The position numbers and the translations under genes were made by a program. The notes beneath the pieces were generated by a model. It searched no databases, was not told the DNA's origin, and saw nothing but the letters and a program-made list of their open reading frames with translations. A stretch of DNA of 44,423 bases from a virus (lineage: Duplodnaviria; Caudoviricetes), in IMG/VR virus record IMGVR_UViG_3300022666_000034, positions 1 through 44,423 of that record; one strand, given 5' to 3'. This document shows, one piece after another, positions 1,294-39,735 of this stretch (position 1 is its first letter; each line of letters begins with the position of its first letter).

Positions 1294-1405
1294 ATATAAC
1301 GGCTACGCCCTGACCGGCGCGGCGAATAACAGAGAGGAGACATTATGAGCAATGCAGCGGAAACAGCAGAGAGATCCGCGCCCGAGTCCAGGGACGTGGT
1401 TATGC
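1294..1405 (-). repeat. attC-like site A (112 bp; loop contains the RBS and ATG of the next gene)
   Basis: ATATAAC...CCCTGACCGGCGCGG / CCGCGCCCGAGTCCAGGG-ACGTG-GTTATGC. Confidence 0.75.
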
Positions 1406-1662
1406 AAATCGATGTGGCTTTCGGAGACCCGGCGCCAAATCGCATGTTTTCTCCCTGGCAGCACTACATTACGAAATTTCTGACGTTCTCCAAGTCGGTC
1501 CCGTGCGCTCATTGCGGACGGAAAGGGATGCGTCACTGGACACTGTTGAAATTTTTCCGAGTCATGGAGGAGGGTGCATTTACCCTGAAGCCCTCCGAGC
1601 AAGAATATCCGCCTCTAACTCCGGTATGCACGAAGCATATCCTCTCGGAGTCAAAGGCATAA
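1345..1662 (+). CDS. Hypothetical Zn-binding cassette protein
   Basis: GAGGAG RBS; CAHC motif; the TAA stop is part of the GCATAAC box. Confidence 0.75.
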   Translation: MSNAAETAERSAPESRDVVMQIDVAFGDPAPNRMFSPWQHYITKFLTFSKSVPCAHCGRKGMRHWTLLKFFRVMEEGAFTLKPSEQEYPPLTPVCTKHILSESKA

Positions 1663-1709
1663 CGATAGTGAGGCGTCACCAGCTTGTCTGGTGCCGCCGA
1701 TGGTTATAC
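1657..1709 (-). repeat. attC-like site B
   Basis: GCATAAC...GGCGTCACCAG-CTTGT-CTGGTGCCGCC..GTTATAC. Confidence 0.8.
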
Positions 1710-1730
1710 AGCGGTTTTGAATATCCAGCA

Positions 1731-1875
1731 GGCTGTCTCGCTTGCACGGCGGATTAGGGGAGTAGTGGCGAGTGTTCCCGGCTGCTACTCAAATTCGATG
1801 ATGCCCACCGTCTGAAACCAACAGAGGAACCCGGAGAGACAGCCAAAACAACGACACGCCGGGAGGCAGCCCGGC
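1731..1875 (+). ncRNA. Putative structured RNA or leader inside cassette 2
   Basis: GGCTGTCTC (1731-39)/GAGACAGCC (1836-44) enclose a GAGTAG/CTACTC hairpin; a GCCGGG/CCCGGC hairpin follows at 1858-75. Confidence 0.35.
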
Positions 1876-1893
1876 ACATTAAACGGAGGCGGT

Positions 1894-2253
1894 ATGCAGC
1901 TCAGAGACGATCAGCTTGAAGCACTGCGGCACATGCTCGGCATAGATGATCCGAGTGTTAAGGAGCCGAAGTCGTACCGAAACTATTACTGTGCCTGCAA
2001 AAATGACTCGTTGATGAATGGTCTGCGGCATTTGGGATTCGTCCGGCTGTACCGAGTCACAGACGATTATGACTATTTCACGGCCACTGAAACGGGTATT
2101 GCAGCGGCTCACGCCAGCCACAAGAAAATCAGGTGGCCGAAGGCAAAGCGCATGTACCACAAGTTTCTGGACCTGAGTGATTGCTGGCCCGACCTCACAT
2201 TCAGGCAATTTCTCACGGACCCGGAGCTATTGGAAATACGGAGAGCTGTATAA
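1894..2253 (+). CDS. Hypothetical cassette protein
   Basis: GGAGG RBS; QLEALRHMLG...YRNYY motif recalled from phage hypotheticals; stop in the GTATAAC box. Confidence 0.8.
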   Translation: MQLRDDQLEALRHMLGIDDPSVKEPKSYRNYYCACKNDSLMNGLRHLGFVRLYRVTDDYDYFTATETGIAAAHASHKKIRWPKAKRMYHKFLDLSDCWPDLTFRQFLTDPELLEIRRAV

Positions 2254-2302
2254 CGGCCAGGCGTTTGACCAGCTTTCGGGCTGGTCGGAACGCTGGTTAT
2301 GC
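2248..2302 (-). repeat. attC-like site C
   Basis: GTATAAC..GCGTTTGACCAGC-TTTCGG-GCTGGTCGGAACGC.TG.GTTATGC. Confidence 0.85.
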
Positions 2303-2323
2303 CCTTCGATGGGCGGGGAGGAA

Positions 2324-2530
2324 ATGGTGGAGGTAGGTCAAAAGCTCACGAGCCGAGGTTTTATCAACTGCCCTGAGTGCGAGGCTCTAGTAAAACATGT
2401 GCATTCGGCGCAACAAGACAAACTTTTCCTGTCTCGAAAATTACAGGCCATTCGCGCAATCTGCACAACTGACCATGAGGATAAATTACAATTCATTGCC
2501 CGAGTCCTGAAAGTTTTGGACGGGGCGTAA
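2324..2530 (+). CDS. Hypothetical cassette protein (68 aa, CPEC motif)
   Basis: GGAGG RBS before ATG 2324; stop in the GCGTAAC box. Confidence 0.7.
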   Translation: MVEVGQKLTSRGFINCPECEALVKHVHSAQQDKLFLSRKLQAIRAICTTDHEDKLQFIARVLKVLDGA

Positions 2531-2638
2531 CGGCTGGTGGATGACCGCCAAGGGAGGGAAACATGAATAGGCATGAACTGAATGAAGCGGCAAAACCACT
2601 GGGAGAAAGAAAAGGTGCGGTCGATTCGTTGGTTATAA
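2525..2638 (-). repeat. attC-like site D (114 bp; loop contains the RBS and ATG of the Lar-like gene)
   Basis: GCGTAAC-8nt-GATGACCGC ... GCGGTCGATT-CGTTG-GTTATAA. Confidence 0.75.
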
Positions 2639-2835
2639 AGTCTTGTCCGTTCTGTGGGGCAACCGATGATTTTGGCATTGGGCGCGGAACAGAAGACAGC
2701 GAGGGGTTCCCAACCTATCTGTATTGTGCATCATGTGGGGCGCAAGGCCCGTGGGTTTACACGCGAGACAACTCGGTTTTTACTTGTACCGCTATTGCTG
2801 CGGATAAGACCGGCTGGAACCAGAGAGCCTTATAA
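2563..2835 (+). CDS. Lar-family restriction alleviation protein
   Basis: KSCPFCG...YCASCGAQGP...WNQR signature of Lar-like zinc ribbons. Confidence 0.75.
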   Translation: MNRHELNEAAKPLGERKGAVDSLVIKSCPFCGATDDFGIGRGTEDSEGFPTYLYCASCGAQGPWVYTRDNSVFTCTAIAADKTGWNQRAL

Positions 2836-2895
2836 CGCCAAGGGTAACCGGTTGCGCGGCAGTTTGCGCAATCCGCATTGACCCGCTGGTTAGCC
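2830..2895 (-). repeat. attC-like site E (canonical spacing on the minus strand)
   Basis: Minus strand reads GGCTAAC-5nt-GGTCAATG...GGTTACC-6nt-GTTATAA, matching the R''-L''-L'-R' layout with the extra C at L'' position 4. Confidence 0.88.
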
Positions 2896-2913
2896 GATTT
2901 TATTGGAGGATTT

Positions 2914-3345
2914 ATGTCTGAACAGAACGAATGGATAAGCATAGATGACGCTCGTTTCCCGCTGGAAAAATACAAGGGGGACGAGATTGCAATACGGACA
3001 AAAGCCAACAATGGTCGGTGGATATACCAGATTGCCGTTGTTGATGGCGATGGAAAGGTTGCGATTGACCCCTGCGTGATGTGCTCGCAGTGCGGTGGGA
3101 CTCTGCAATGGAAACCGCACGCCTGGAACCCGTTTTCAAAAATGCCGATGGAGTGGAAACCGCTGGGAAAATTTATTGACGCTGACCGCAGGGTAGCCTC
3201 GTTCAAGGCGGAAGCAGAAGCTAACTACAATCGAGCACTGGAAGCTGAGGAATTATTGTACCTATTTTATATCGACCGCGACAAAAAAGCGGAAGAAGCG
3301 ATTATCAACTTTGTGCAAGATGGGCTTGATAAGGAGGGGTTATGA
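2914..3345 (+). CDS. Hypothetical cassette protein (EWISIDD N-terminus, CxxC)
   Basis: GGAGG RBS before ATG 2914; ATGA overlap with the next gene. Confidence 0.75.
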   Translation: MSEQNEWISIDDARFPLEKYKGDEIAIRTKANNGRWIYQIAVVDGDGKVAIDPCVMCSQCGGTLQWKPHAWNPFSKMPMEWKPLGKFIDADRRVASFKAEAEANYNRALEAEELLYLFYIDRDKKAEEAIINFVQDGLDKEGL

Positions 3346-3839
3346 GCTGGGGAGAACTACAGTGTACGCATTACGGAAATTGCAACCATGCGCCAACCAT
3401 GGCGACCTGCAACAAGGAATGCGGTTTCTTTTTGCAAAAATTCAACTTTGAACCAGTGCGGCAACCGATTGGGTTTGAAATACCTGAGAATGGAACTGAC
3501 GACGGCAAAACGCCCTACAATGGAAAGGATTACCCAATTCACAGCTCTGGGCCGTGGGCTGTGACTTCCGGGATTGTGCCTGACCGCAACGGCCGGTTGA
3601 TCATTGAGGACTGCCACGGGAACCCGGTATGCGCAACCTCTGCCAAGGGTGTGCAGGGTCAAGTGCTGATCATGGAGGCCAACGCCAAAATTATTGCCGC
3701 CGCGCCTGAAATGCTGGAGGTGTTGCGATGGCTGGATGCGGAAATGGACTGCCGAGATGATGATTTCGGAGGAGCGCTGTTTTCCAGAGGAGATTTTGGG
3801 AGAGTGCGCCGGGCAATCAAACTGGCAATGGAAGGCTAA
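3342..3839 (+). CDS. Hypothetical mosaic phage protein
   Basis: HSSGPW...EANAKIIAAAPEML motif common in phage early proteins; Cys-rich N-terminus; stop in the GGCTAAC box. Confidence 0.8.
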   Translation: MSWGELQCTHYGNCNHAPTMATCNKECGFFLQKFNFEPVRQPIGFEIPENGTDDGKTPYNGKDYPIHSSGPWAVTSGIVPDRNGRLIIEDCHGNPVCATSAKGVQGQVLIMEANAKIIAAAPEMLEVLRWLDAEMDCRDDDFGGALFSRGDFGRVRRAIKLAMEG

Positions 3840-3886
3840 CGGCTTGAGGCTGACCCGTTCTCAGCGGGTCGAGCCGATGGTTATCT
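3834..3886 (-). repeat. attC-like site F
   Basis: GGCTAAC-8nt-GCTGACCCGT-TCTCA-GCGGGTCGAGC-CGATG-GTTATCT; single extra G in the right arm. Confidence 0.88.
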
Positions 3887-3900
3887 GATTGGAGGTTGAT

Positions 3901-4167
3901 ATGAGGGAAACACTTTGCATCTTTTTCGCAATTTCGCACTGGCTGAAATATCGCGGGTGCCCTGACTCGATTCCGTCTAGTCGCGGGTGGAATCGGTACA
4001 AACGACTGATAGGGTTGTGGGGGTTCTGGCCGGTGTTTCACGACACATGGCTGACCATTCTCCACGCTGTCGGAATCCACCGTTTTTTCGATTGGTCGAA
4101 CGATCAGCAGCGATATGTCGGCTATTGGAAACTCGGGAAACCACAGTTAACTTTTTTATTCAGATAA
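3901..4167 (+). CDS. Hypothetical Trp-rich cassette protein
   Basis: GGAGG RBS before ATG 3901; stop in the AGATAAC box. Confidence 0.7.
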   Translation: MRETLCIFFAISHWLKYRGCPDSIPSSRGWNRYKRLIGLWGFWPVFHDTWLTILHAVGIHRFFDWSNDQQRYVGYWKLGKPQLTFLFR

Positions 4168-4220
4168 CGCTTCAAGGCTTACCCGCCGTCTTTTCGGGCG
4201 GGTGGTGCCGCTGGTTAAAT
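4162..4220 (-). repeat. attC-like site G
   Basis: AGATAAC-8nt-GCTTACCCGCC...GGCGGGTGGTGC-CGCTG-GTTAAAT. Confidence 0.82.
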
Positions 4221-4236
4221 TACAAAGGGAGGATTT

Positions 4237-4653
4237 ATGACACTGGAACAGATACAAGAAAAAGCTGATTCATTTTTCGAGTTTCCGACTGAGAACAAAG
4301 ACCATGTGACTACTACAAGCGCCGTGCTGTTTGCCCGCGAGTGCTGTAAAGAGGCGATTGCAGGCAGGACGTATTTCCACTCAGATGAGGAAGTAGAGAA
4401 AGATCTTGAGTTCGCTTTCAAGAGATCGATGGTGTTGGCTAACATGTTGAAAATTCCGGTTCACGAATCGCCGAAAGTCACGGGAACAATTCTTGGGCTT
4501 GTCCGTGGGGCCGTGGAGCGGTTGCAGTCGAGGATTGCAGAACTTGAAGCCGCTATTCTCAAAACCCTCAACTAGAACGGCCATCTAGCGGACGGGGACG
4601 TATGCACCTTGATTGATTTAAAACGTGCAATGTCAACTTGGGAGCTAGAGTAA
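4237..4653 (+). pseudogene. Hypothetical cassette gene with an internal amber stop (ORF 4237-4575; frame continues to TAA 4653)
   Basis: After TAG 4573-75 the frame reads NGHLADGDVCTLIDLKRAMSTWELE and stops at the next attC-like box. Confidence 0.6.
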
Positions 4654-4716
4654 TCTAACGGCCTGGGCGGTGAACCGCCAGGCTTTATCGGGCGGCTTCG
4701 ACCGTCCTGGTTATAG
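4653..4716 (-). repeat. attC-like site H
   Basis: ATCTAAC..GGGCGGTGAACCGCC...GGCGGCTTCGACCGTCC.TG.GTTATAG. Confidence 0.82.
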
Positions 4717-4730
4717 TGCGAAAGGATACA

Positions 4731-5174
4731 GTGACACATTCTGACCTCGTAAAAATCGCTGAACGGTGGCTGATCGGCTCCCGGAAGTGCGGGGCGGTCA
4801 TTACCGAATTGGTCACGCTTGGCATGGAAACGCCGGACGCTATCGGATTTCGTGATGGATCATCAACGCTGGTCGAGTGCAAGGCAAGCCGTTCTGATTT
4901 TCTGGCCGACGCCAAGAAGCTCTTCCGTCGCAACCCTTGGATGGGGATGGGAACATACAGATTTTACCTCTGCCCTGCTGGCATCATCACCGCCCAAGAC
5001 CTCCCTGAAAAGTGGGGGCTGATATGGGTCAACGAAAAGGGCAAACCTCGGATGCAGATAGGTCCGAAAGGCAACATCTGGAGCGCACAAGAGGCGTTCC
5101 GCTTCGATGAGAAAAACCATCAGGCGGAACAGATGATTTTGGTTAGTGCCCTGCGTCGGCTACAAGGCCGGTAG
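4731..5174 (+). CDS. PD-(D/E)xK nuclease-like protein (MmcB-like)
   Basis: ETPDAIGF...LVECKASRSDFLAD...YRFYLCPAG...LPEKWGL motif. Confidence 0.75.
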   Translation: MTHSDLVKIAERWLIGSRKCGAVITELVTLGMETPDAIGFRDGSSTLVECKASRSDFLADAKKLFRRNPWMGMGTYRFYLCPAGIITAQDLPEKWGLIWVNEKGKPRMQIGPKGNIWSAQEAFRFDEKNHQAEQMILVSALRRLQGR

Positions 5175-5178
5175 AGCA

Positions 5179-5238
5179 CTATAACGGCAAGGGTAAACAG
5201 CGAGCGAAGCGGAGACGGACACCACGCCGTGGTTATGC
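5179..5238 (-). repeat. attC-like site I (arms poorly complementary; degenerate or chimeric)
   Basis: CTATAAC and GTTATGC boxes are present and match the neighbouring cassettes; the internal stem is weak. Confidence 0.6.
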
Positions 5239-5262
5239 GTTTCCGCCACTTCCGGGGGGAAT

Positions 5263-5661
5263 ATGGAAATCAAGAAGTGGGTAATGCACATCATTGGACC
5301 GGATGAAATTCACGAGATGCCGGATGAAATCACGGCTCTCCGCGAGGCCAACAAACTGAACAGGCGGATTGTGAAATGGAGAGAAGAAGACCCGTCGCCG
5401 CATGATCCCTTCATGGTTGCGCTGGTAATAGAGCAGACTGTCAGCCCCCGCAAAGCTCCGTGGTGCGACTTCGCTGGAAACCCCATTTTTGAGGGCAGCA
5501 CCATACAGCATCCCTCCGGTGAGCGCGGCACGGTTGTTTTTCTGGCAGATGAAGAACAGGCAAGCGACCAATGGAGAGTTGATTACGGCGGCGAGGATAA
5601 ATCTCGGCTCTGCCTCCAAATCAACGACAAGGGGCAGGCGGTGGTAGTAGAGACCGCATAA
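5263..5661 (+). CDS. Hypothetical cassette protein (YopX-like C-terminal half)
   Basis: DFAGNPIFEGSTI motif; stop in the GCATAAC box. Confidence 0.75.
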   Translation: MEIKKWVMHIIGPDEIHEMPDEITALREANKLNRRIVKWREEDPSPHDPFMVALVIEQTVSPRKAPWCDFAGNPIFEGSTIQHPSGERGTVVFLADEEQASDQWRVDYGGEDKSRLCLQINDKGQAVVVETA

Positions 5662-5704
5662 CGCTGGAGCGCACCCGCCCGGCGGTGTGCGCGGCGGGTT
5701 AGGC
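5656..5704 (-). repeat. attC-like site J (last of the array)
   Basis: GCATAAC..GCGCACCCGCC/GGCGGTGTGCGC..GTTAGGC. Confidence 0.75.
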
Positions 5705-5714
5705 CATCGCCCGG

Positions 5715-5743
5715 AAAAAGAAAAGCCCCTCAGAAGAGGGGCT
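5715..5743 (-). terminator. Intrinsic terminator for the minus-strand operon
   Basis: AGCCCCTC-AGAA-GAGGGGCT stem preceded by an A-tract (U-tract on the minus strand). Confidence 0.7.
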
Positions 5744-5815
5744 GTGCCGTCACGGGAAGCCAGAAATCCAGCCGGGCGGCGTGTTCCGCCTGGATCTCTT
5801 CAAATTCCTCCCGGA

Positions 5816-6304
5816 TTATGAGTGTAGTCTTTTGAGGCCCGCGACCCAATCTAGGGACGCATCATCAGCGTCCTCGTACTCGGTGTATGCGGGCTCTATC
5901 GGATAGTTGCCGGGTGTGCTCTCCGATGTGTAAATCTTGTACATGCCGCAATTTGCACACACCTCTTTTGAGGTGATTTGTGTTCCGCCAATACCCCATA
6001 CACCGGGATTTTCCTGGCAGCCGCCCAAGAGTTCGTAGGGAGATTGCCAGTCGTGGATTCCTTCTTCGCTGTCGCAATCCGGCTCCACGGTTTCCCTATC
6101 CACCAAAACAGAGAAGCGTTCACCTTCACCGATCTCTTCGTCGTCATCATCGACCTCAACCAGATATACACCGACATAGCAGGATTTGTCGCCGTACTCG
6201 CCGTCTTGTACCCATTCTTCAGCGACCGCACGAGCTTCCTTCATGTCTTCGGCCTCGAAATATTCACTGCCTCCGCACTCTTCGCGCATATAAAACCTTG
6301 CCAT
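5816..6304 (-). CDS. Highly acidic hypothetical protein
   Basis: 162-aa D/E-rich ORF with GGAGG RBS. Confidence 0.8.
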   Translation of the reverse strand: MARFYMREECGGSEYFEAEDMKEARAVAEEWVQDGEYGDKSCYVGVYLVEVDDDDEEIGEGERFSVLVDRETVEPDCDSEEGIHDWQSPYELLGGCQENPGVWGIGGTQITSKEVCANCGMYKIYTSESTPGNYPIEPAYTEYEDADDASLDWVAGLKRLHS

Positions 6305-6308
6305 GATG

Positions 6309-6458
6309 TCAATCCTCCTTTGCTGAGATTTTTTTCTTTCGCGCCAACTCTCTCAACGCCGCCGCGATTACAGCGGAATTGGAGAGAGAGAGGGCGGCGG
6401 CTAGGGTGAGGAGGAGCCGATCGGACTCCTCCGAAAAATATACGTTGCGCGTTGGCAT
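6309..6458 (-). CDS. Small ribbon-helix-helix (CopG/Arc-like) DNA-binding protein
   Basis: MPTRNVYFSEESDRLL...SNSAVIAAALRELARK pattern; GAGGAGG RBS. Confidence 0.65.
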   Translation of the reverse strand: MPTRNVYFSEESDRLLLTLAAALSLSNSAVIAAALRELARKKKISAKED

Positions 6459-6501
6459 GCTAGACCTCCTCGATGTCGCCGGTATTGAGCGACCGGCTGC
6501 G

Positions 6502-6789
6502 TTAAGACCCAAGTATTACACGGCCCACTTCATCCGTGCTCACGAGCTCACTCCATGCCTTCAGAAAATCCCAGTCTGAGCAGGGAGCCAGCTGACTGTG
6601 GAGATGCTCGCGCAACTCATCATCCATAACGGCTCCGTACCTGTCTGCATCGCCCCTGCTAACGTCTTTTTTTGTCAATTCGCCAAGATTGCCAGTCCAA
6701 GGATTTTTTACGATTATAGGGGCATTGTTGTCATACTCGTACTCTTCGCCGTCGATATCGGCAATCGTCCTCCATTCTTCTCTTTTCAT
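6502..6789 (-). CDS. Acidic hypothetical protein
   Basis: MDDELREHLHSQLAPCSDWDFL motif; GGAGG RBS. Confidence 0.75.
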   Translation of the reverse strand: MKREEWRTIADIDGEEYEYDNNAPIIVKNPWTGNLGELTKKDVSRGDADRYGAVMDDELREHLHSQLAPCSDWDFLKAWSELVSTDEVGRVILGS

Positions 6790-6828
6790 TTCCCCACCTC
6801 CAAGCGCCGGCAACCGGCGCGGTTAGTA

Positions 6829-7068
6829 TTATTCGTTTTCGATGCCGACGCCACGACCGCCAACCGTAACAGCTACAAAGTAGCCATCAGCGCGGAGGGA
6901 GCGTATTTTTTCAAGCCCCGCCTTGCTCAGTTTTTGCAGATTCGTGCTGCCAGGGTGGCGCTGAATATGCCCCATTGCCTTAACCCTGAAGTATAAAGTA
7001 TCGTCCATCGGGGTTTCATTTTCCAACCAAGTTTTTGTTGCGTAGCATTCGTACATTTCGGTTTTCAT
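6829..7068 (-). CDS. Hypothetical protein (first gene of the reverse operon)
   Basis: GGAGG RBS; 79-aa ORF. Confidence 0.7.
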   Translation of the reverse strand: MKTEMYECYATKTWLENETPMDDTLYFRVKAMGHIQRHPGSTNLQKLSKAGLEKIRSLRADGYFVAVTVGGRGVGIENE

Positions 7069-7218
7069 TTCCTTCCTCCCTCAAAATGTATTTGCCTTAC
7101 TATATGCGATATGCGTACCAACATGGTCATGTGTATAGACATATGTTGTAACATGCCGAAATAGCAATGAAATAAATAGTTGACACGCTAAAACAGACTG
7201 GCGACTAAAAACAGAAAA

Positions 7219-7332
7219 TACCGCAAATGAGGTGATGTTTTCCGGGCAAATCGGGAAAAATTGCAGATTATGCAATCAGAACGGCATGTTAGAGAGTACC
7301 GCAAATGAGGTTGCAATTACCGCAAATGAGGT
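7219..7332. repeat. Three perfect 15-bp direct repeats TACCGCAAATGAGGT
   Basis: Copies at 7219-7233, 7297-7311 and 7318-7332 in the divergent intergenic region. Confidence 0.9.
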
Positions 7333-7430
7333 GTAGGGTAGAGTACGGCCCTAGGGTAGCTCCCGAAAAGAACGATTCCCTACGTTCCTGGGCCGAAAAC
7401 CTCATTAGGGCCGCACTATGGGAGGTGCAG

Positions 7431-7856
7431 ATGGATAAAGCCTTTTCAGCCGCCTATCGTTCTTACATAAAAAGCGATGCATGGCGAGATAAAAGAGAAT
7501 GGGTATTCAACCGCAAGGGGCGCAAATGTAAGGTATGTAAGTCCACTGAAAACCTACACATCCATCATTGCACCTACGAAATGCTTGGAAAAGAAAGGCT
7601 CCGCGATCTCGTTCCGCTATGCCAGTCATGCCATGACCTGGTTCACAAGATGGGGGGAGGCTATGCAGGGCTTAGGAAACTCACAAACGCGAAGAAGAAA
7701 AACACGGAATATCAGGCCAAAATAGAAAAACGGTGTAAACGGCGGCTCAGGAAGAGAAGGAATAAGGTCATTGAGGATCAGAAACAGAAAACAACAGCAT
7801 TTCGGCCCGTAACCATTATAAGGCGCGGCACAGAAACGATCAGACGGGAGGGCTAG
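7431..7856 (+). CDS. HNH endonuclease
   Basis: CKVCKSTENLHIHHCTY...LVPLCQSCHDLVH; GGAGG RBS; upstream of terminase. Confidence 0.85.
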   Translation: MDKAFSAAYRSYIKSDAWRDKREWVFNRKGRKCKVCKSTENLHIHHCTYEMLGKERLRDLVPLCQSCHDLVHKMGGGYAGLRKLTNAKKKNTEYQAKIEKRCKRRLRKRRNKVIEDQKQKTTAFRPVTIIRRGTETIRREG

Positions 7857-7858
7857 CA

Positions 7859-8197
7859 ATGTCCCTCCCTTATTTCAAGATACACCCACCGGATTACCTC
7901 AACGACTATGCCTACCAACGCCTAACAAATGAGGAGTTCGGCGTACTGATGCGCCTATATATGCTCATGTGGCAATCCAACATGATGTTGCATGATGATG
8001 ATATCAATATAGCCTGGCAACTCAGGCTAGACCCTCAAGCATGGGCCAAAATAAAGGCCAAGATGATTGACTTTGGGATACTGCTCAACGAGCACGGCAG
8101 CTTGATAAACAGCGCCATGAAAACAAAATACCTGGGTGCCGAAAGATATTCCCATCAACAGGCAGAAAAGCGGAAAAAACGCAAGAAATCCACATAG
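7859..8197 (+). CDS. DUF1376/YdaU-like protein (N-terminal domain of replication initiators), apparently truncated
   Basis: LPYFKIHPPDYLND...LTNEEFGVLMRLYMLMW motif. Confidence 0.65.
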   Translation: MSLPYFKIHPPDYLNDYAYQRLTNEEFGVLMRLYMLMWQSNMMLHDDDINIAWQLRLDPQAWAKIKAKMIDFGILLNEHGSLINSAMKTKYLGAERYSHQQAEKRKKRKKST

Positions 8198-8302
8198 TTC
8201 CAACTATGGTTAATCCATGGTTTAACCATGGCCTATACAATAAGCAATAGTCTATAGTCTATAGCCTATAAACAATAAGATTATACGTCGGAGATATCCA
8301 CC

Positions 8303-8740
8303 ATGCCACGCCCCAAAGGTGTCAAAAACGGCGATGGAAGAAAAAAGATCCTGGTCGCCCCAGAAAAACGAGCAAAGAACACACCCATCACCAAATTGCT
8401 CGATCAGGTACACCGTTGCCCAGGTATAACCACAAGAGAGCTGGGAGCCATCAACGGCGTGGACCATTCAGCTATAGTCCGTCTGTTCCAGCGCCACAAT
8501 ATCGACCGAGAAAGGGTAGAGGATTACAAAGGTAATAGAGCGGATTTCCTGGCAGGGCTGCAGGAGAGGATGCTCGCATCGATCACCGAGGCTGATTTGG
8601 AAAAGGCCTCCCTGCGCGATAAAGTCATATCTGCCGGGGTGCTATTCGATAAGGAGCGCCTCGAGCGTGGTCAATCCACGGTCAATCTGGCCTCTATTTT
8701 CGCCCGTGCGATGGAGGGAGGCGAGGGCAACGAGGGGTAG
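8303..8740 (+). CDS. terS: Putative terminase small subunit (HTH)
   Basis: MPRPKG start, HTH, LFDKERLERGQST motif; upstream of terL. Confidence 0.65.
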   Translation: MPRPKGVKNGDGRKKILVAPEKRAKNTPITKLLDQVHRCPGITTRELGAINGVDHSAIVRLFQRHNIDRERVEDYKGNRADFLAGLQERMLASITEADLEKASLRDKVISAGVLFDKERLERGQSTVNLASIFARAMEGGEGNEG

Positions 8741-8942
8741 TTTTGGGGGTATGTGTGATTGTCGCGAAGGTAAAAGCGCATGTACTACAGGTATTTGAGG
8801 GGCTTGTTGGATTCCTTCAACAGCATCCGATCGTCCGTGATGGGGTGCGGGAGGATGAGTCGCCTGGGGGGGGGTAGGATTGGACGGTCACGTATATATG
8901 CCAATGCTCCCCTCCTATCGCATATCAAACAAAAGGGGTTTT

Positions 8943-9236
8943 ATGAGGATACCAAAGCATTTCACGCTTCACGGGCAGCGGGTAGATGTGGTGTTTGACT
9001 CTTCCGTTGATTTTCGGAATGACAATCGTGGGGAGGCTCAGTTCAGGGTAAACCGGATTGCGTTGGCGCCTTCTTCTGAGACGCGTCCGATGCCCGTCAC
9101 TCAGGTTGAGCAGACGTTTTGCCATGAGCTGATGCATTATATATCCCATCATGCCGGGGTGGATTTGGATGAGAGGGATGTTGATTTGATGGGACATCTG
9201 CTGCATCAGGCGTTGGTAACAGCTGAGTATGAATGA
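8943..9236 (+). CDS. Small phage Zn-metallopeptidase-like protein (HExxH)
   Basis: EQTFCHELMH...LDERDVD motif. Confidence 0.7.
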   Translation: MRIPKHFTLHGQRVDVVFDSSVDFRNDNRGEAQFRVNRIALAPSSETRPMPVTQVEQTFCHELMHYISHHAGVDLDERDVDLMGHLLHQALVTAEYE

Positions 9237-9279
9237 TGGTTTGATGTAATTTCAACGCCGTGATGGCGTGGGGTGGGTA

Positions 9280-10809
9280 ATGGAAGATAAGCAGGTTGCA
9301 AGGGCGCGGAAGTTACTGGAGAAGTGGACAAAAGACCCTCTGTCGTGGGTGGCGGATAATTTCCCTACGGTGAAGTTATCGACTCAGCAGAGGGATTTTT
9401 TTGAGTTACTTGGGCGGTATGTGGATGCGAAGGTGCGAGCGGGGAATGGAGAAGAGTTATCGAGTGAGGATGCGGAGCTTGCCGGTAAGGTAGGTTTTTC
9501 GATATCCGCTGGGCAGGGTGTGGGTAAGGATTTTGTTACGGCGTTGGTGATTTATTGGTTTTTGTGGTGCAATCCGAGGGCTGAGAAGCATCCTAAGTAC
9601 AATGTGCAGGACAAGCCCAAGGTGGTAGCAACTGGCGTTGGTGGGAAGCATTTGAGGAATGTCTTGTGGGCTGAGTTGTCCAAGATAGCGATGCTGTCCA
9701 AGCCTTCTGACGCCAAGGGCGAGAGTCCGATATTGAAGGAGCTGTTTGAGTGGCAGACTGAGAAGCTGAGTTTTCGTGATAAGAGGTATGAGAACTGGTT
9801 TGCTGAAGCGGTGACGATAAACGCCAATTCCACAGCGGAGGAACAGGCGAGGACTTTGTATGGTCGTCATGCTCATTCGATGCTGATAGTTGCGGATGAG
9901 GCGGCGGGCATTCCAGATCCTGTTTTCACGACGATGGAAGGGACGATGACGGACCCTATCAACTTTGCCTTGATGATATTCAACCCTATCAAGACGAAGG
10001 GTTACGCCATCAGGAGCCAGGGGGAGGAGCGGGACAAGTGGCTTTGTTTACGGTGGGATGCGGAGGAATCTGAGCTTGTATCAAGGGAGTCGATAGAGAG
10101 AAAGAGGCGATACGGTGAACAATCTTACGAATGGAGGGTTTTGGTTAAAGGAATGCCTCCGCTGGTGGATTGCAACACTCTTATTCCTCCTGATTGGATA
10201 TTGGCGGCAATAGACAGGGATATAGGGGAACAGACAGGGCGCGGGGTGGTTCTTGGCGCGGATATTGGCGGGGGAGGGGATAGGAGCGTGGTTTGTACCC
10301 GCCATGGTGGTGTTGTGGTTGGTTTTGAGCGCAATTCTTCGGCAGACACGACAGTGGTTGAGGATTGGGCGCATTCGCTTTACATGAGGCATTCAGCCGG
10401 GTGCGTGGTGGTCGATAATATTGGTATTGGCGCGGGTGTTTACTTTTCGTTGCGCAAGAAGGTTGGCGTCACGGCCAGGAAGGGCGACGCCAGGGAGACG
10501 GCGCGGGACGATGCGAGATTCTTCAATAAGAGGGCGGAAGCATATTGGAGGTTGCGTGAGGCTTTTGAAGCCGGGGCGATTTCCATCCCGAACGACAAGG
10601 ATCTGATAAACGAGTTGTCTGCTATCACATATGACCCGTCTAACCGCAACAAGATAGCTGACAAGAAGGACATGCGGAAGAAGTTGGGGGGGAAGTCTCC
10701 GGACTCGGCTGATGCGCTGGCACTGACCTTTTATGTTGAAGACAAGCAGTTTGTCGGGGGGAAGAGGAAGACAATGAAGGTAGACATGACCGGCGTATTT
10801 TTGCGGTAA
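9280..10809 (+). CDS. terL: Terminase large subunit
   Basis: Walker A AGQGVGKD, Walker B LIVADEAAG, IFNP motif, nuclease GADIGGGGDRS and KSPDSADAL. Confidence 0.95.
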   Translation: MEDKQVARARKLLEKWTKDPLSWVADNFPTVKLSTQQRDFFELLGRYVDAKVRAGNGEELSSEDAELAGKVGFSISAGQGVGKDFVTALVIYWFLWCNPRAEKHPKYNVQDKPKVVATGVGGKHLRNVLWAELSKIAMLSKPSDAKGESPILKELFEWQTEKLSFRDKRYENWFAEAVTINANSTAEEQARTLYGRHAHSMLIVADEAAGIPDPVFTTMEGTMTDPINFALMIFNPIKTKGYAIRSQGEERDKWLCLRWDAEESELVSRESIERKRRYGEQSYEWRVLVKGMPPLVDCNTLIPPDWILAAIDRDIGEQTGRGVVLGADIGGGGDRSVVCTRHGGVVVGFERNSSADTTVVEDWAHSLYMRHSAGCVVVDNIGIGAGVYFSLRKKVGVTARKGDARETARDDARFFNKRAEAYWRLREAFEAGAISIPNDKDLINELSAITYDPSNRNKIADKKDMRKKLGGKSPDSADALALTFYVEDKQFVGGKRKTMKVDMTGVFLR

Positions 10810-31834: not shown

Positions 31835-32055
31835 TGCGCCACAGAAAGTGCGCCAAAGATGCGCCACTGGAAATAAAAAGGGGCTACGGAAATCTACCGT
31901 AACCCCTTGAAATTATGGCGGGCGGTGCCGGACTCGAACCGGCGACCCCAGGCTTCGGAGTTATAGGGCCGATCCCGTGGAGCGTTGCCAGTAGCGGGTT
32001 CACGGCTTCTTTCTCTGGCGCATTGCGCCACTGGATTTGCGCCCGAATTGCGCCA
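31835..32055. repeat. Integrase arm-type binding sites (TGCGCCA triplets) flanking the attP core
   Basis: TGCGCCA at 31835, 31849, 31860 and at 32024, 32038 (TGCGCCC), 32049; identical 14/11-bp spacing on both arms. Confidence 0.75.
31916..31960 (-). other. attP core: 3' half of a tRNA-Arg(CCG) gene
   Basis: Minus strand CTCCGAAGCCTGGGGTCGCCGGTTCGAGTCCGGCACCGCCCGCCA = anticodon loop, T-arm with GTTCGA, acceptor strand and CCA; no 5' half; adjacent to the integrase. Confidence 0.88.
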
Positions 32056-33148
32056 ACTCATCTTGTAGGTGCTGCGGCGTCAACGTCAAATACCGCTCAG
32101 TAGTCTTGATGCTGGCGTGACCGTATGCCAGTTGCAAAGCGCGGAGGCTGATACCGGATTGCAGGGCGTGGACTCCAAACGCATCGCGGAGGATGTGAGG
32201 GTGGAGAAGCGAAGGCGGATATCCGGACCTGGCCGCGCCCCTCTTTACTGGCTTCTTCAAGTCCTGATACGGCAGCTCTGTTTCCTTGTTGATCCATAGA
32301 TAGCCTGGCTTCCATGCCTTCCTGAGCCATGCCCGCATTTTGGGGTGTATTGGCATGGTCCTTGTCCGGTCGCCCTTCCCCTTCACGTATATCCACCCAT
32401 GCACGACATCCACCTGTTCGCCTTGCAATTTCAGAACTTCATTCTTTCGAAACCCCCCATAATATATCACTGCGAAGATGGACCGGTATACCCTGTCCTT
32501 GCCCGACAACGCCCGGAGGAACAGGAGGACAGACCGACGATCCGGAACGACCTTTTGCGGCGGCGCAACTTGCCGGGCGGTAAAGTTGCGGATCTTGAAG
32601 TTCAGCGGTTCCGCTAGACATTGTTCCGGGTCCGTCATCCAGCGGATAATTGCCTTCAGATAATTCAACTCCTTCTGGATCACCCTCTTGCCTATCGGCT
32701 TTCGCGCTTTCGCCTGTTCTGGCGTGTCTTCTCCAGGTAATTGCCCGTGGTGGCCGGGAAGGTACGTGTCGCTCATCCGCTTTGACTTGTACTGCTCTAT
32801 ATATGCAGGGGTGAGGTGAGATGGGCGCATATGGCCGAAAAATGGCTTTAGATGGCGATTCCAGACAATGAGGAAATCGGCGTATGTGGTCTCTGACGTG
32901 CTATGGCGGTAATATTCGCAGAAGTCCGGCCATACCTGTTCTATCGTCGGGGCAAGTTTGGCGGCGGGCTTTTTAGCGGTCTTGAGTAGGTCGGCGTAGT
33001 AGGCAAGTGCTTCGGCGCGGGTGCCGCGAAAATGGAAATATTCCCGTTTATTCGAGGGTTTCCCGGTTTTAGGGTCTTTCTTTCGCCCCTCCGGATACCA
33101 TCGAATAATCCACGCTCCGGGATATTTGGGATGAGGGGTTATTGACAT
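32000..33148 (-). CDS. int: Tyrosine recombinase (phage integrase)
   Basis: Catalytic R (GFRKNE), K (KGKG), HxxR (HILRD), H (YGH), Y (TTERY). Confidence 0.93.
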   Translation of the reverse strand: MSITPHPKYPGAWIIRWYPEGRKKDPKTGKPSNKREYFHFRGTRAEALAYYADLLKTAKKPAAKLAPTIEQVWPDFCEYYRHSTSETTYADFLIVWNRHLKPFFGHMRPSHLTPAYIEQYKSKRMSDTYLPGHHGQLPGEDTPEQAKARKPIGKRVIQKELNYLKAIIRWMTDPEQCLAEPLNFKIRNFTARQVAPPQKVVPDRRSVLLFLRALSGKDRVYRSIFAVIYYGGFRKNEVLKLQGEQVDVVHGWIYVKGKGDRTRTMPIHPKMRAWLRKAWKPGYLWINKETELPYQDLKKPVKRGAARSGYPPSLLHPHILRDAFGVHALQSGISLRALQLAYGHASIKTTERYLTLTPQHLQDELAQFGRKSSGAMRQRKKP

Positions 33149-34089: not shown

Positions 34090-34103
34090 CAAAAATCTTC
34101 TGG

Positions 34104-34162
34104 GGAACACGGCGAGGAACGAGGCAAGGCAAGGCAAGGCATAGCAAGGCGAGGCGAGGAAT
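34104..34162 (+). repeat. Non-coding (GGC-NN)n pentamer array 1, candidate guide RNA
   Basis: GGAAC-AC-GGC-GA-GGAAC-GA-(GGC-AA)x3-GGC-AT-AGC-AA-GGC-GA-GGC-GA-GGAAT, between cro and the next gene. Confidence 0.85.
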
Positions 34163-34183
34163 CTAAGACAGAAAGGAATTGTG

Positions 34184-34639
34184 ATGAACTCATCAGGGCG
34201 AGTGTACTTCAAGGGGAACTCAACGAATGTAGATGTTCGCAAGTTGCAAGAAAAATGGCCGGAATCGGCCATGAAGCCAGGCGATATCATCAGATATGAG
34301 GAACTGGCGGAAGTTCTTAGCATGGAACTAGGGACGAACAGATTTAAGACCATCATCAACCGATGGCGGAATCTTATCGAAGCCAGCACGGGCAAGCGTC
34401 TTGCCGCGATTGACGGCAGACTGCAAGTGCTGACGGAACCGGAAAAGCTATTTGCCGTCGAAAGTAAAAGCCGGTCGATCATGCGGCAGTCACGCAAGAA
34501 TCTATTACGGACGACCTACGTTGACCGAAAGGCGTTGAGCGATGATGAAAAAATGCGACTGGATCATGTGACGATGAACGAAAGTCGGATCGTGGCCATA
34601 AGGCAACTACGGGAATGGGTGCCATTGCCGGAGATGTAG
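34184..34639 (+). CDS. Hypothetical protein between the GGC-NN arrays (candidate accessory of the RAMP-like system)
   Basis: AAAGGA RBS; 151 aa; helical with a possible winged-helix N-terminal half. Confidence 0.8.
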   Translation: MNSSGRVYFKGNSTNVDVRKLQEKWPESAMKPGDIIRYEELAEVLSMELGTNRFKTIINRWRNLIEASTGKRLAAIDGRLQVLTEPEKLFAVESKSRSIMRQSRKNLLRTTYVDRKALSDDEKMRLDHVTMNESRIVAIRQLREWVPLPEM

Positions 34640-34830
34640 CGAGGAACGTGGCCTGGCAGGGCAAGCGCGAGGCGAGGCGGGGCAAGGCACGGCTAGGCAA
34701 GCGCGAGGCGAGGAACAGGGCCAGGCGAGGCGTGGCAAGGCATGGCTAGGCAGGGCGCGAGGCGAGGAACACGGCGAGGCGGGGCAAGGCATGGCACGGC
34801 CCGGCGGGCGCGAGGCGAGGAACACGGCAA
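34639..34830 (+). repeat. Non-coding (GGC-NN)n pentamer array 2 with a GCGCGAGGCGAGGAAC delimiter, candidate multi-unit guide RNA
   Basis: Invariant GGC alternating with variable dinucleotides; delimiter at 34701-16, 34755-70 and 34808-23. Confidence 0.9.
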
Positions 34831-34854: not shown

Positions 34855-35517
34855 ATGAAACAATATCAAATCACATTGAACGGGCTGACACCACTACTGA
34901 TGCATAACGACAACCTGAACTTCTCGGAGAAGCTCGCAGAATGGCGCAAGGCCCCAGAAAACAAAGAGGGCAGCAATGCCGGTGACGACCGTTCGCCAGC
35001 TTGGACGTGGATCGGATATCTATACCACGATGGACGCAATCTCGGTATATCCTCAGATAACATCATGACCATGCTTAGAGAGGGCGGAGCAAAAGTCATC
35101 AACAAGGGCAAGGAAACGTATAAAAAACAGACACAATCCGGCGTCATGCTAGACCAGCAGCAGTTCGATATTTATGTGGACGGCAAGCGGATACCCATTG
35201 ACCGGATAAAGCCCCTTATCGGCGTCAACGACTTCGCCCAACACATAGAACTTGCGGAAGAACTAGGCTTTGAACTGCTCGTTAAGCGGGCAGCGGTTGG
35301 CAGGGCGAAACATATCCGCGTTCGCCCGATGTTCAGAACGTGGCAAGCGGTGGGTTCCCTAACTGTACTTGATGAGGATCTTTCTGGGCTGACTCATCAG
35401 GTATTGGAGACAGTATTGCGGCAGTCCGGGGCGTTGTGTGGGCTATGTGACTGGCGACCTTCTTCAAAGAGTTCCGGCACGTTTGGCAAGTTTCAGCCGA
35501 TCATCGAGCCGATATAA
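34855..35517 (+). CDS. Stand-alone RAMP-superfamily (Cas7/Csm3-like) protein
   Basis: N-terminal strand YQITLNGLTPLLMH, LGISSDNIMTMLRE helix, RVRPMF..W, and a C-terminal Gly-rich loop GALCGLCDWRPSSKSSGTFGKF; recognised by eye. Confidence 0.7.
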   Translation: MKQYQITLNGLTPLLMHNDNLNFSEKLAEWRKAPENKEGSNAGDDRSPAWTWIGYLYHDGRNLGISSDNIMTMLREGGAKVINKGKETYKKQTQSGVMLDQQQFDIYVDGKRIPIDRIKPLIGVNDFAQHIELAEELGFELLVKRAAVGRAKHIRVRPMFRTWQAVGSLTVLDEDLSGLTHQVLETVLRQSGALCGLCDWRPSSKSSGTFGKFQPIIEPI

Positions 35518-39288: not shown

Positions 39289-39735
39289 GTGACAGCAAAA
39301 GAGAAAATAGAGCAGATGAAACAAGCATTCGAAGACTGCGACAAAGTAATCGATGCTATAGATGATGCTGTCGGGATAAGCCCGGAAGCCCCGCTATTTA
39401 GATCCATAAGCAGATTGCAGGACATAACCGTAAGGGCAACAGCGGAAAGCATCGGAATGGAAGAAGAAGTCCTTGACTGGTTTGTCCGTGAAAACAATTT
39501 CGGTGCAACCAGACACGTATGCGAGAAGGATGGTGTCGAGACAGTGATCGACAGTATTGACGCATTCCTGCAGTTCGAGGGGGTGCAATGTGAGTATTAT
39601 GAAATAGGCAAGGCCGAAAATGCCGAAGAAGCCGCCCTTGGTAGAGTTGTAAAGGAGTATCTGGCGGCAACCGGATCATGGCCGTGGAATAATGATTATT
39701 GGTGGGACAAATTTCAAAAAGCAATAAGCAGATAA
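39289..39735 (+). CDS. Hypothetical protein
   Basis: LDWFVRENNFG motif; stop lies in the AGATAAC box of site K. Confidence 0.7.
   Translation: MTAKEKIEQMKQAFEDCDKVIDAIDDAVGISPEAPLFRSISRLQDITVRATAESIGMEEEVLDWFVRENNFGATRHVCEKDGVETVIDSIDAFLQFEGVQCEYYEIGKAENAEEAALGRVVKEYLAATGSWPWNNDYWWDKFQKAISR

Follow-up and report, generated by a model that had tools for sequence, protein, structure and literature searches.

IMGVR_UViG_3300022666_000034 is a virus record of 44,423 nucleotides (Duplodnaviria; Caudoviricetes), which was analysed at its full length and is called the window in the following. Between positions 1294 and 5704 it contains ten hairpins, which are very probably integron-type attC sites. 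They bound nine cassettes that are exchanged between phages at the sequence TAAC, with the genes located on the bottom strand and an integron integrase (IntI) supplied in trans as the likely acting enzyme. The array is a real and recently active phage-borne cluster of attC sites lacking an integron integrase (CALIN) with reversed polarity; its sites are presumably recombined by IntI. Phage CALINs have already been published (Qi 2023, PMC9892861), and the reversed polarity is the unusual part of the present case.

Ten attC-like sites delimit nine cassettes

A first-pass annotation, made from the sequence alone, had proposed ten attC-like sites. All of them are there, each with NNNTAAC at its start and GTTANNN at its end, and the proposed length range of 49–114 bp is correct. 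The 5-nt spacer, described as often CGNTG, has this form in six of the ten sites. The sites lie 257–991 bp apart, all on the plus strand. The outer R boxes contain the conserved AAC and GTT in all ten sites and also in site K, an eleventh site of the same kind that stands alone with no partner box nearby. The sites were scored with a covariance model (R1) built from 16 canonical attC bottom strands, with a rigid bottom-strand scanner, and by the strength of their folds relative to shuffled sequences (z). Open reading frames (ORFs) and ribosome-binding sites (RBS) are given with the cassettes.

1294–1405 (+), site A: long attC-like site; plus strand assigned as bottom strand from its context; weak fold; no model R1 match
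1300–1662 (+), cassette A: 363 bp, C..TAA; hairpin A and ORF 1345–1662 (105 aa, no family)
1657–1709 (+), site B: probable attC; model R1 12.4 bits; fold z -3.3
1663–2253 (+), cassette B: 591 bp; hairpin B, leader and ORF 1894–2253 (119 aa, phrog_13561, function unknown)
2248–2302 (+), site C: probable attC with extrahelical G; scanner comparison and model R1 match; fold z -4.1
2254–2530 (+), cassette C: 277 bp; ORF 2324–2530 (68 aa)
2525–2638 (+), site D: long probable attC; loop with RBS and ATG (2563), the ORF continuing through the right box; weak fold
2531–2835 (+), cassette D: 305 bp; Lar-like restriction alleviation protein 2563–2835 (PF14354, 28.9 bits, cut-off 28.6)
2830–2895 (+), site E: probable attC; model R1 match; this hairpin type precedes many different genes elsewhere
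2836–3839 (+), cassette E: 1004 bp; ORFs 2914–3345 and 3342–3839
3834–3886 (+), site F: probable attC with extrahelical G; model R1 16.2 bits
3840–4167 (+), cassette F: 328 bp; ORF 3901–4167 (88 aa)
4162–4220 (+), site G: probable attC; scanner comparison and model R1 match
4168–4658 (+), cassette G: 491 bp; ORF 4237–4575 (112 aa, no family)
4653–4716 (+), site H: probable attC with 6-nt spacer; no model R1 match
4659–5184 (+), cassette H: 526 bp; ORF to 5174 (152 aa from the first GTG; phrog_631; weak MmcB-like lead)
5179–5238 (+), site I: degenerate attC, right arm pairs poorly; model R1 11.7 bits; fold z +0.85
5185–5661 (+), cassette I: 477 bp; ORF 5263–5661 (132 aa, phrog_19209, function unknown)
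5656–5704 (+), site J: probable attC at the array end; model R1 17.6 bits
39730–39782 (+), site K: attC-like site on its own, with a TAA that terminates ORF 39289–39735

A cassette starts with the C of one TAAC, continues through the hairpin, the RBS and the gene, and ends with the TAA of the following box, a triplet that in most cases doubles as stop codon. The annotation had placed the end of each unit in or next to NNNTAAC. In seven of the nine cassettes, the gene stops exactly at this TAA; the ORF of cassette G stops 80 nt and that of cassette H 7 nt before it. The nine units proposed are present and contain ten ORFs, because unit E has two genes. The loops of A and D harbour the RBS and the ATG of the next ORF, and site J closes the array with no gene or partner box behind it. 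The cargo is mostly without a name, and the atlas leads for two cargo proteins are weak. A single-protein scan of viral_contigs yielded no relatives of ORF 5263–5661. The leader of cassette B (1710–1893) is a non-coding stretch of 185 nt with small hairpins and could contain a promoter or an RNA element.

The annotation had further described an imperfect hairpin at every site and, in several right arms, one unpaired G. Sites B, C, F and H fold clearly (z -2.5 to -4.1) and sites E, G, J and K modestly (z -1.2 to -1.8); sites A, D and I do not fold better than shuffled sequences. The unpaired G is found in six of the ten sites (C, D, E, F, G and J), 9 nt ahead of the right GTT, and is absent in A and I. 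Site H has a G at -10 in combination with its longer spacer; site B has a G at -10 that forms a mismatch and not a bulge. Between 1200 and 5800, the scanner detected five sites on the plus strand and none on the minus strand, compared with a mean of 0.12 and a maximum of 1 in 300 shuffles.

Two further approaches were discarded. A free-fold scan for AAC/GTT pairing across the window was dominated by long chance folds and recovered only A, J and K. A GCCTAAC at 7920 was considered as the partner box of J; it lies within an ORF and is a 7-mer expected by chance.

The two ends of each cassette are complementary

When reverse-complemented, the right box of a site matches the left box of the site that follows. 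Seven of these nine pairs are perfect 7-mers, and each of the other two contains one mismatch. Thus, 25 of 27 variable positions match, which is equalled by 6 of 362,880 permutations (p=1.7e-5), and the pairing extends to up to 10 nt. The match of boxes within a site is only 11/30. Among the distinct pairs of adjacent boxes in 25 related loci, 21 of 33 are perfect (null mean 2.5, maximum 9 in 20,000) versus 1 of 60 pairs within sites. In integron arrays each cassette carries both halves of its own R box; the observed pattern is therefore expected of composite attC sites in an array. Since the two ends of a cassette are complementary, its R box would be completely paired in the circle formed on excision.

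The genes are located on the attC bottom strand

The bottom strands of published attC sites contain the 5-nt spacer and an extrahelical G on the 3' arm (Qi 2023 Table S3, PMC9892861; Bouvier 2009, PMC2727003), and the crossover has been located in the R' box (Bouvier 2009, PMC2727003). Here, both features are found on the 3' arm of the coding strand, and each hairpin therefore leads its gene, which is the opposite of bacterial integrons. These sequence features identify the coding strand as the bottom strand of attC, and the genes as bottom-strand genes. The classical build, with the ORF on the top strand and attC behind it, is not present; attC stands ahead of the ORF. In agreement with this assignment, a G at -9 occurs in 7 of the 11 sites on the plus strand versus 2 of 11 on the minus strand, and the bottom-strand model fits better on the plus strand in 9 of 11 sites.

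Model R1 matched seven of the ten sites (B, C, E, F, G, I and J) at their exact coordinates and always on the plus strand. The annotation had suggested a covariance model as a check; the matches to these sites are weak, at 10–18 bits (E 0.065–3.3). At E values of up to 5, R1 had nine matches in the window; the two outside the sites are copies of one AT-rich repeat. On related loci, R1 scored up to 49 bits, again on the coding strand. The controls, namely R388, the P1 class 1 integron, Shewanella M16-3 and TJE1, were all scored as canonical. A polarity caller based on the longest ORF miscalled GC-rich controls, and a stop-plus-RBS rule was used instead.

Cassettes have been exchanged between genomes at the TAAC box

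From 24 metagenome runs listed, four were used for a comparison: X3, which belongs to the study that is the possible source of the record, as well as X4, X7 and X8 from three other studies. Parts of the array without cover in these runs provide no information. Run X8 contains 3837–4169 (cassette F) with 0 differences, preceded by another gene and followed by another hairpin. Run X7 contains 2250–2836 (cassettes C and D) with 1 difference on an 11-kb contig; another hairpin follows, and an E-like hairpin lies 650 nt upstream. In run X4, cassette E is represented by 2832–3079 and 3098–3840 on two contigs with 0 and 6 differences, respectively, and again another hairpin follows. Furthermore, locus L069 of an IMG/VR phage contains cassette F at 331/332 bases with sharp edges and other neighbours. 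The order in L069 is F before E, which is opposite to the window, and its cassette E is 80–83% identical.

In all four cases (X4, X7, X8 and L069), the edges of identity coincide with the TAAC box left of a hairpin, and gains and losses in other genomes thus map to the boxes as predicted by the annotation. Among the 16 loose ends listed (8 further ones exist), 9 are no more than 3 nt away from a left TAAC box. The position of these edges before the hairpin implies that a cassette consists of a hairpin and the downstream gene, cut within TAAC. To judge from these alignments, C+D, E and F move as units between contexts at 99–100% identity.

Which recombinase acts on the array?

The array has at least two attC sites on one strand less than 4 kb apart and no neighbouring intI, and it is thus a CALIN as defined by Cury 2016. 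Neither an attI (judged by eye) nor a cassette promoter (Pc) was found beside it, and the build is not that of a complete integron. The recombinase of the window is the following.

32000–33148 (-), phage tyrosine integrase of the lysogeny type, not IntI: TIGR02249 46.5 bits (cut-off 265), without the IntI insert

This integrase is the sole recombinase of the window, and several sites have a long R'-L' spacer of 8–9 nt versus 5–7 nt in the controls. Both points would agree with true cassettes whose hairpins are recombined by a phage tyrosine recombinase other than IntI, be it this integrase or that of a related phage. We consider this explanation unlikely: apart from lacking the insert, the integrase has its gene at a distance of 26 kb from the array and next to a tRNA fragment that resembles an attP, the same cassette family adjoins a true intI in L090 (see below), and a reversed phage site (H101) has been recombined with IntI1 (PMC9892861). 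The stretch beside the integrase gene, 31897–31966, resembles the 3' half of a tRNA and is a probable attP. An exact search of genome_contigs with the attP pattern gave no match, and a host search by the integrase in the same collection yielded nothing.

For the preferred reading, in which an IntI is supplied in trans, metagenome contig L090 is informative. Besides the E hairpin and a homolog of ORF 3342–3839 (78% identical), this contig has five sites that belong to the family described here. It ends in an attI-like stretch and an interrupted intI; the geometry is that typical of an integron platform, except that the ORFs are reversed. The attI-like stretch (2370–2719) has two direct repeats, and the intI is broken after about 49 codons by an apparent insertion-sequence end. 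These 49 aa are identical to P0073, a full IntI (TIGR02249 443 bits) whose cluster includes a protein from a metagenome-assembled genome of Desulfuromonadales. P0073 had no relatives in viral_contigs in a single-protein scan. A scan with 27 IntIs like P0073 resulted in 110 matches, of which 79 viral loci were kept. Among the 17 IntI-bearing viral loci with scorable cassette pairs, 10 lean reversed, 2 canonical, and 5 were tied or uncalled. Applied to 48 cassettes in IntI loci, the stop-plus-RBS rule called 18 reversed and 8 canonical, with 2 ambiguous and 20 uncalled. All 7 viral IntIs checked exceed the IntI cut-off; 6 of these are from reversed-scored loci, and most lie beside phage genes. 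According to blastn, none of the 79 IntI loci resembles this array, and the actual donor enzyme is therefore a presumed one.

Several of the loci inspected have features of their own. In L133, L130, L118 and L142, only 50–90 nt separate the TAAC at the end of the last gene or box from the start of intI; this compact junction of phage integrons resembles an attI. L108 carries an RtcB-like tRNA ligase (4619–5908) as a reversed cassette next to a phage IntI. L101 (KX853513, Virus Rctr41k) encodes a full IntI-like gene annotated as xerD (4680–5678) with five long attC sites of canonical polarity downstream (6641–9434); it is absent from those tables of Qi 2023 that were examined.

Evidence against the proposed reading and alternative explanations

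A number of observations weigh against attC cassettes that are moved by IntI. With regard to the sites, A, D and I equal shuffled sequences in fold strength (z -0.66, -0.13 and +0.85), R1 scores are just 10–18 bits with A, D, H and K being missed, and J and K have no partner box. With regard to the enzyme, the phage record contains no intI but only weak matches to its own integrase, and CheckV estimates it to be 62% complete despite its terminal repeats; no intI above cut-off was found in 14 related or comparison virus records either. With regard to the exchange, the crossover is located only to the invariant TAAC, i.e. at 4-nt resolution, and cassette circles were not seen. Seven of the 16 listed loose ends lie elsewhere: one 6 nt past site E, four inside genes and two before the array begins. 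The comparison does not include X1 and X2, the runs that match best, and the small-share runs X5, X6 and X9–X24 were likewise not used. Run X3 departs from the window 6 nt after site E, and in L009 another hairpin precedes the gene and right box of cassette H. Finally, homologs of cassette genes occur without any attC in L004–L008, L068 and L104.

The arrangement of gene H in L009, the occurrence of the E hairpin before many genes and the exit of X3 indicate that hairpin and gene are not permanently bound. Gene H behind another hairpin and the cargo homologs without attC further imply that genes enter and leave the cassette state. L003 and L009 were considered as a test of which hairpin travels; they are distant homologs with 58–69% identity to several sites and were not decisive. 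The closest relative by replication gene, L001, has no array at the corresponding position and only a K-like lone site upstream. This site (L001 3737–3786) lies upstream of the replication gene, and K is found in the phage's recombination-gene region.

In a different explanation, the hairpins would act as leaders, in RNA processing or as terminators, and homologous or Erf-mediated recombination at shared boundary sequences would exchange the units. The phage indeed has an Erf annealing protein and an exonuclease, the hairpins are located in 5' leaders, two of them contain a start codon, and one hairpin type is common to many genes. This is nevertheless very improbable, given that the hairpin bodies are only 55% alike on average and that the breakpoints fall into a 4-nt box ahead of the hairpin. 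The complementarity of unit ends over 250–1000 bp has no explanation in terms of RNA or homology. Moreover, none of the ten sites is terminator-like, which disposes of the terminator version, and Rfam assigned no family to any site.

That the array is a frozen relic, assembled once by IntI and now moving only in blocks with phage DNA, would fit its degenerate or weakly folding sites (A, D, I), the partnerless J and K, the two box pairs with a mismatch and the missing intI in cis, but is very improbable: three other studies and one IMG/VR phage contain single cassettes at 99.7–100% identity whose neighbours on either side are new, which speaks for recent box-precise exchange.

The first-pass annotation's phage-borne CALIN of attC-type cassettes is thus supported by the exchange mapped to TAAC, the R1 matches, though weak, and the absence of an encoded IntI; the reversed polarity relative to the genes is not part of that proposal.

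One hairpin type precedes many different genes

An exact 33-nt pattern taken from hairpin E matched 23 loci, 3 of them viral and 20 from metagenomes, with some duplicates among them. An RBS and an ORF follow on the same strand in 19 of the 23 loci. The N-termini behind these hairpins form at least eight groups by eye, and there are many different upstream boxes. Several of the loci carry terminase, portal or primase genes. Cassettes of L003 and L071 encode DNA methyltransferases.

It is conceivable, although we would not count on it, that phages keep their own pool of reversed-polarity cassettes, which is run by host and phage IntIs, and that new cassettes are created by putting genes behind a shared leader consisting of attC and RBS. 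If so, the shared E leader would show one way in which cassettes arise, and such cassettes would be silent once inserted at a bacterial attI behind Pc.

Genomic setting of the array

The record of 44,423 bases is the whole virus record, with a 127-bp terminal repeat. By its genes for terminase, portal, capsid, tail fibre, endolysin, tyrosine integrase, Erf, SSB, resolvase and helicase, it is a temperate tailed phage. The array lies immediately to the right of the replication genes, among small plus-strand ORFs, and the run stops at a terminator-like hairpin. A blastn search with the array against cultured phages gave no match.

5724–5743 (-), terminator-like hairpin: belongs to the convergent minus-strand operon, just past the array

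Directly 5' of site A, a purine-rich stretch (1161–1230) recurs in run X8 with a GTATAACG box immediately after it; it may be a conserved leader ahead of such arrays. The small minus-strand operon converging on the array comprises 6502–6813 (-), which matches an AcrIC5-like anti-CRISPR protein (PF22147, 31 bits, cut-off 27) over 26 residues only, followed by a short ORF at 6309–6512 (-) that resembles a ribbon-helix-helix regulator by eye. Between divergent operons, at 7213–7332, a 21-nt direct repeat occurs three times (core TACCGCAAATGAGGT); these copies are possible operator sites. An int-alpA RNA motif (RF02996, 47.2 bits) is found at 7344–7410 (+), upstream of an HNH gene and distant from the integrase. 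Low-complexity GGCNAGGC repeats lie at 34100–34830 and flank ORFs 34181–34639 and 34855–35517. The GC skew on the plus strand is positive and repeats are present at 1–120, where a replication origin is probably located.

Proposed mechanism and its implications

An IntI from the host, possibly one of the Desulfuromonadales, or from a co-infecting phage would fold and cut the plus strand at AA|C. Circles would be excised and inserted by attC x attC reactions, a route that is assumed because no attI or intI lies here. The first seeding may have occurred via secondary sites (Loot preprint, 10.1101/2022.09.11.507474). As a consequence of the reversed build, the cassettes would be read from the phage early operon. 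The recombinogenic bottom strand would be located on the lagging-strand template of a rightward fork, an orientation that would favour excision; a bottom strand on the lagging template has been associated with more recombination and excision (Loot 2017, PMC5371416). The cargo would serve early accessory functions, in part counter-defence, as suggested by the Lar-like gene here and the DNA methyltransferases in relatives. At a bacterial attI, these genes would point against Pc.

Such arrays would provide a site-specific mechanism for part of phage mosaicism, with small early genes being moved singly at a four-base box. The strand selectivity of attC, which is described as securing expression from Pc, would be used the opposite way in phages. 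The weak site scores suggest that standard scans undercount phage arrays. The creation of cassettes has been called unknown (Cury 2016); it becomes testable with one hairpin plus leader ahead of many genes. Furthermore, assays could draw on the array for attC sites that are short, vary naturally and are known to have moved recently.

Comparison with known systems

No paper describing a reversed polarity of phage cassettes was found in a search that covered journals outside subscription, and the part of Ghaly 2021 available added nothing on orientation. The closest known systems are the phage CALINs of Qi 2023 (PMC9892861), who reported 17 of them in 10,705 genomes. Similar are the attC clusters without intI in phages and the short TAAC..GTTA sites. 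The supplementary CALINs (n=14) comprise 2–4 sites each, compared with ten plus one here. In the portion of that study at hand, no exchange between genomes is shown and polarity is not mentioned. Five of six phage sites tested were recombined with attI1 by IntI1, the one failure being P12002L attC1, and both sites of Pseudoalteromonas phage H101 were recombined with IntI1 (PMC9892861). In attC1 of H101 and attC1 of Polaribacter phage P12002L, the bottom strand is the coding strand, as in the array described here; TJE1 is canonical.

With classical cassettes (R388, the P1 transconjugant, Shewanella M16-3; Bouvier 2009, PMC2727003), the array shares R and L boxes, the 5-nt spacer, the extrahelical G and a variable loop. 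Also shared are a G after AAC (10 of 11 sites here), the complementarity of the R-box halves of one cassette and the crossover in the bottom-strand R' box. In contrast to classical cassettes, the ORF is located on the bottom strand with attC ahead of the gene, and the crossover box provides the stop codon of the previous cassette. Further differences are the start codon in two loops, the frequent R'-L' spacer of 8–9 nt and the five sites shorter than 57 nt. Classical integrons have intI, attI and Pc, none of which accompanies the array. Off-site insertion at attG has been shown for bacterial chromosomes (Loot et al., 10.1101/2022.09.11.507474) and is a possible attI-free route by which the array or the lone site K may have arisen.

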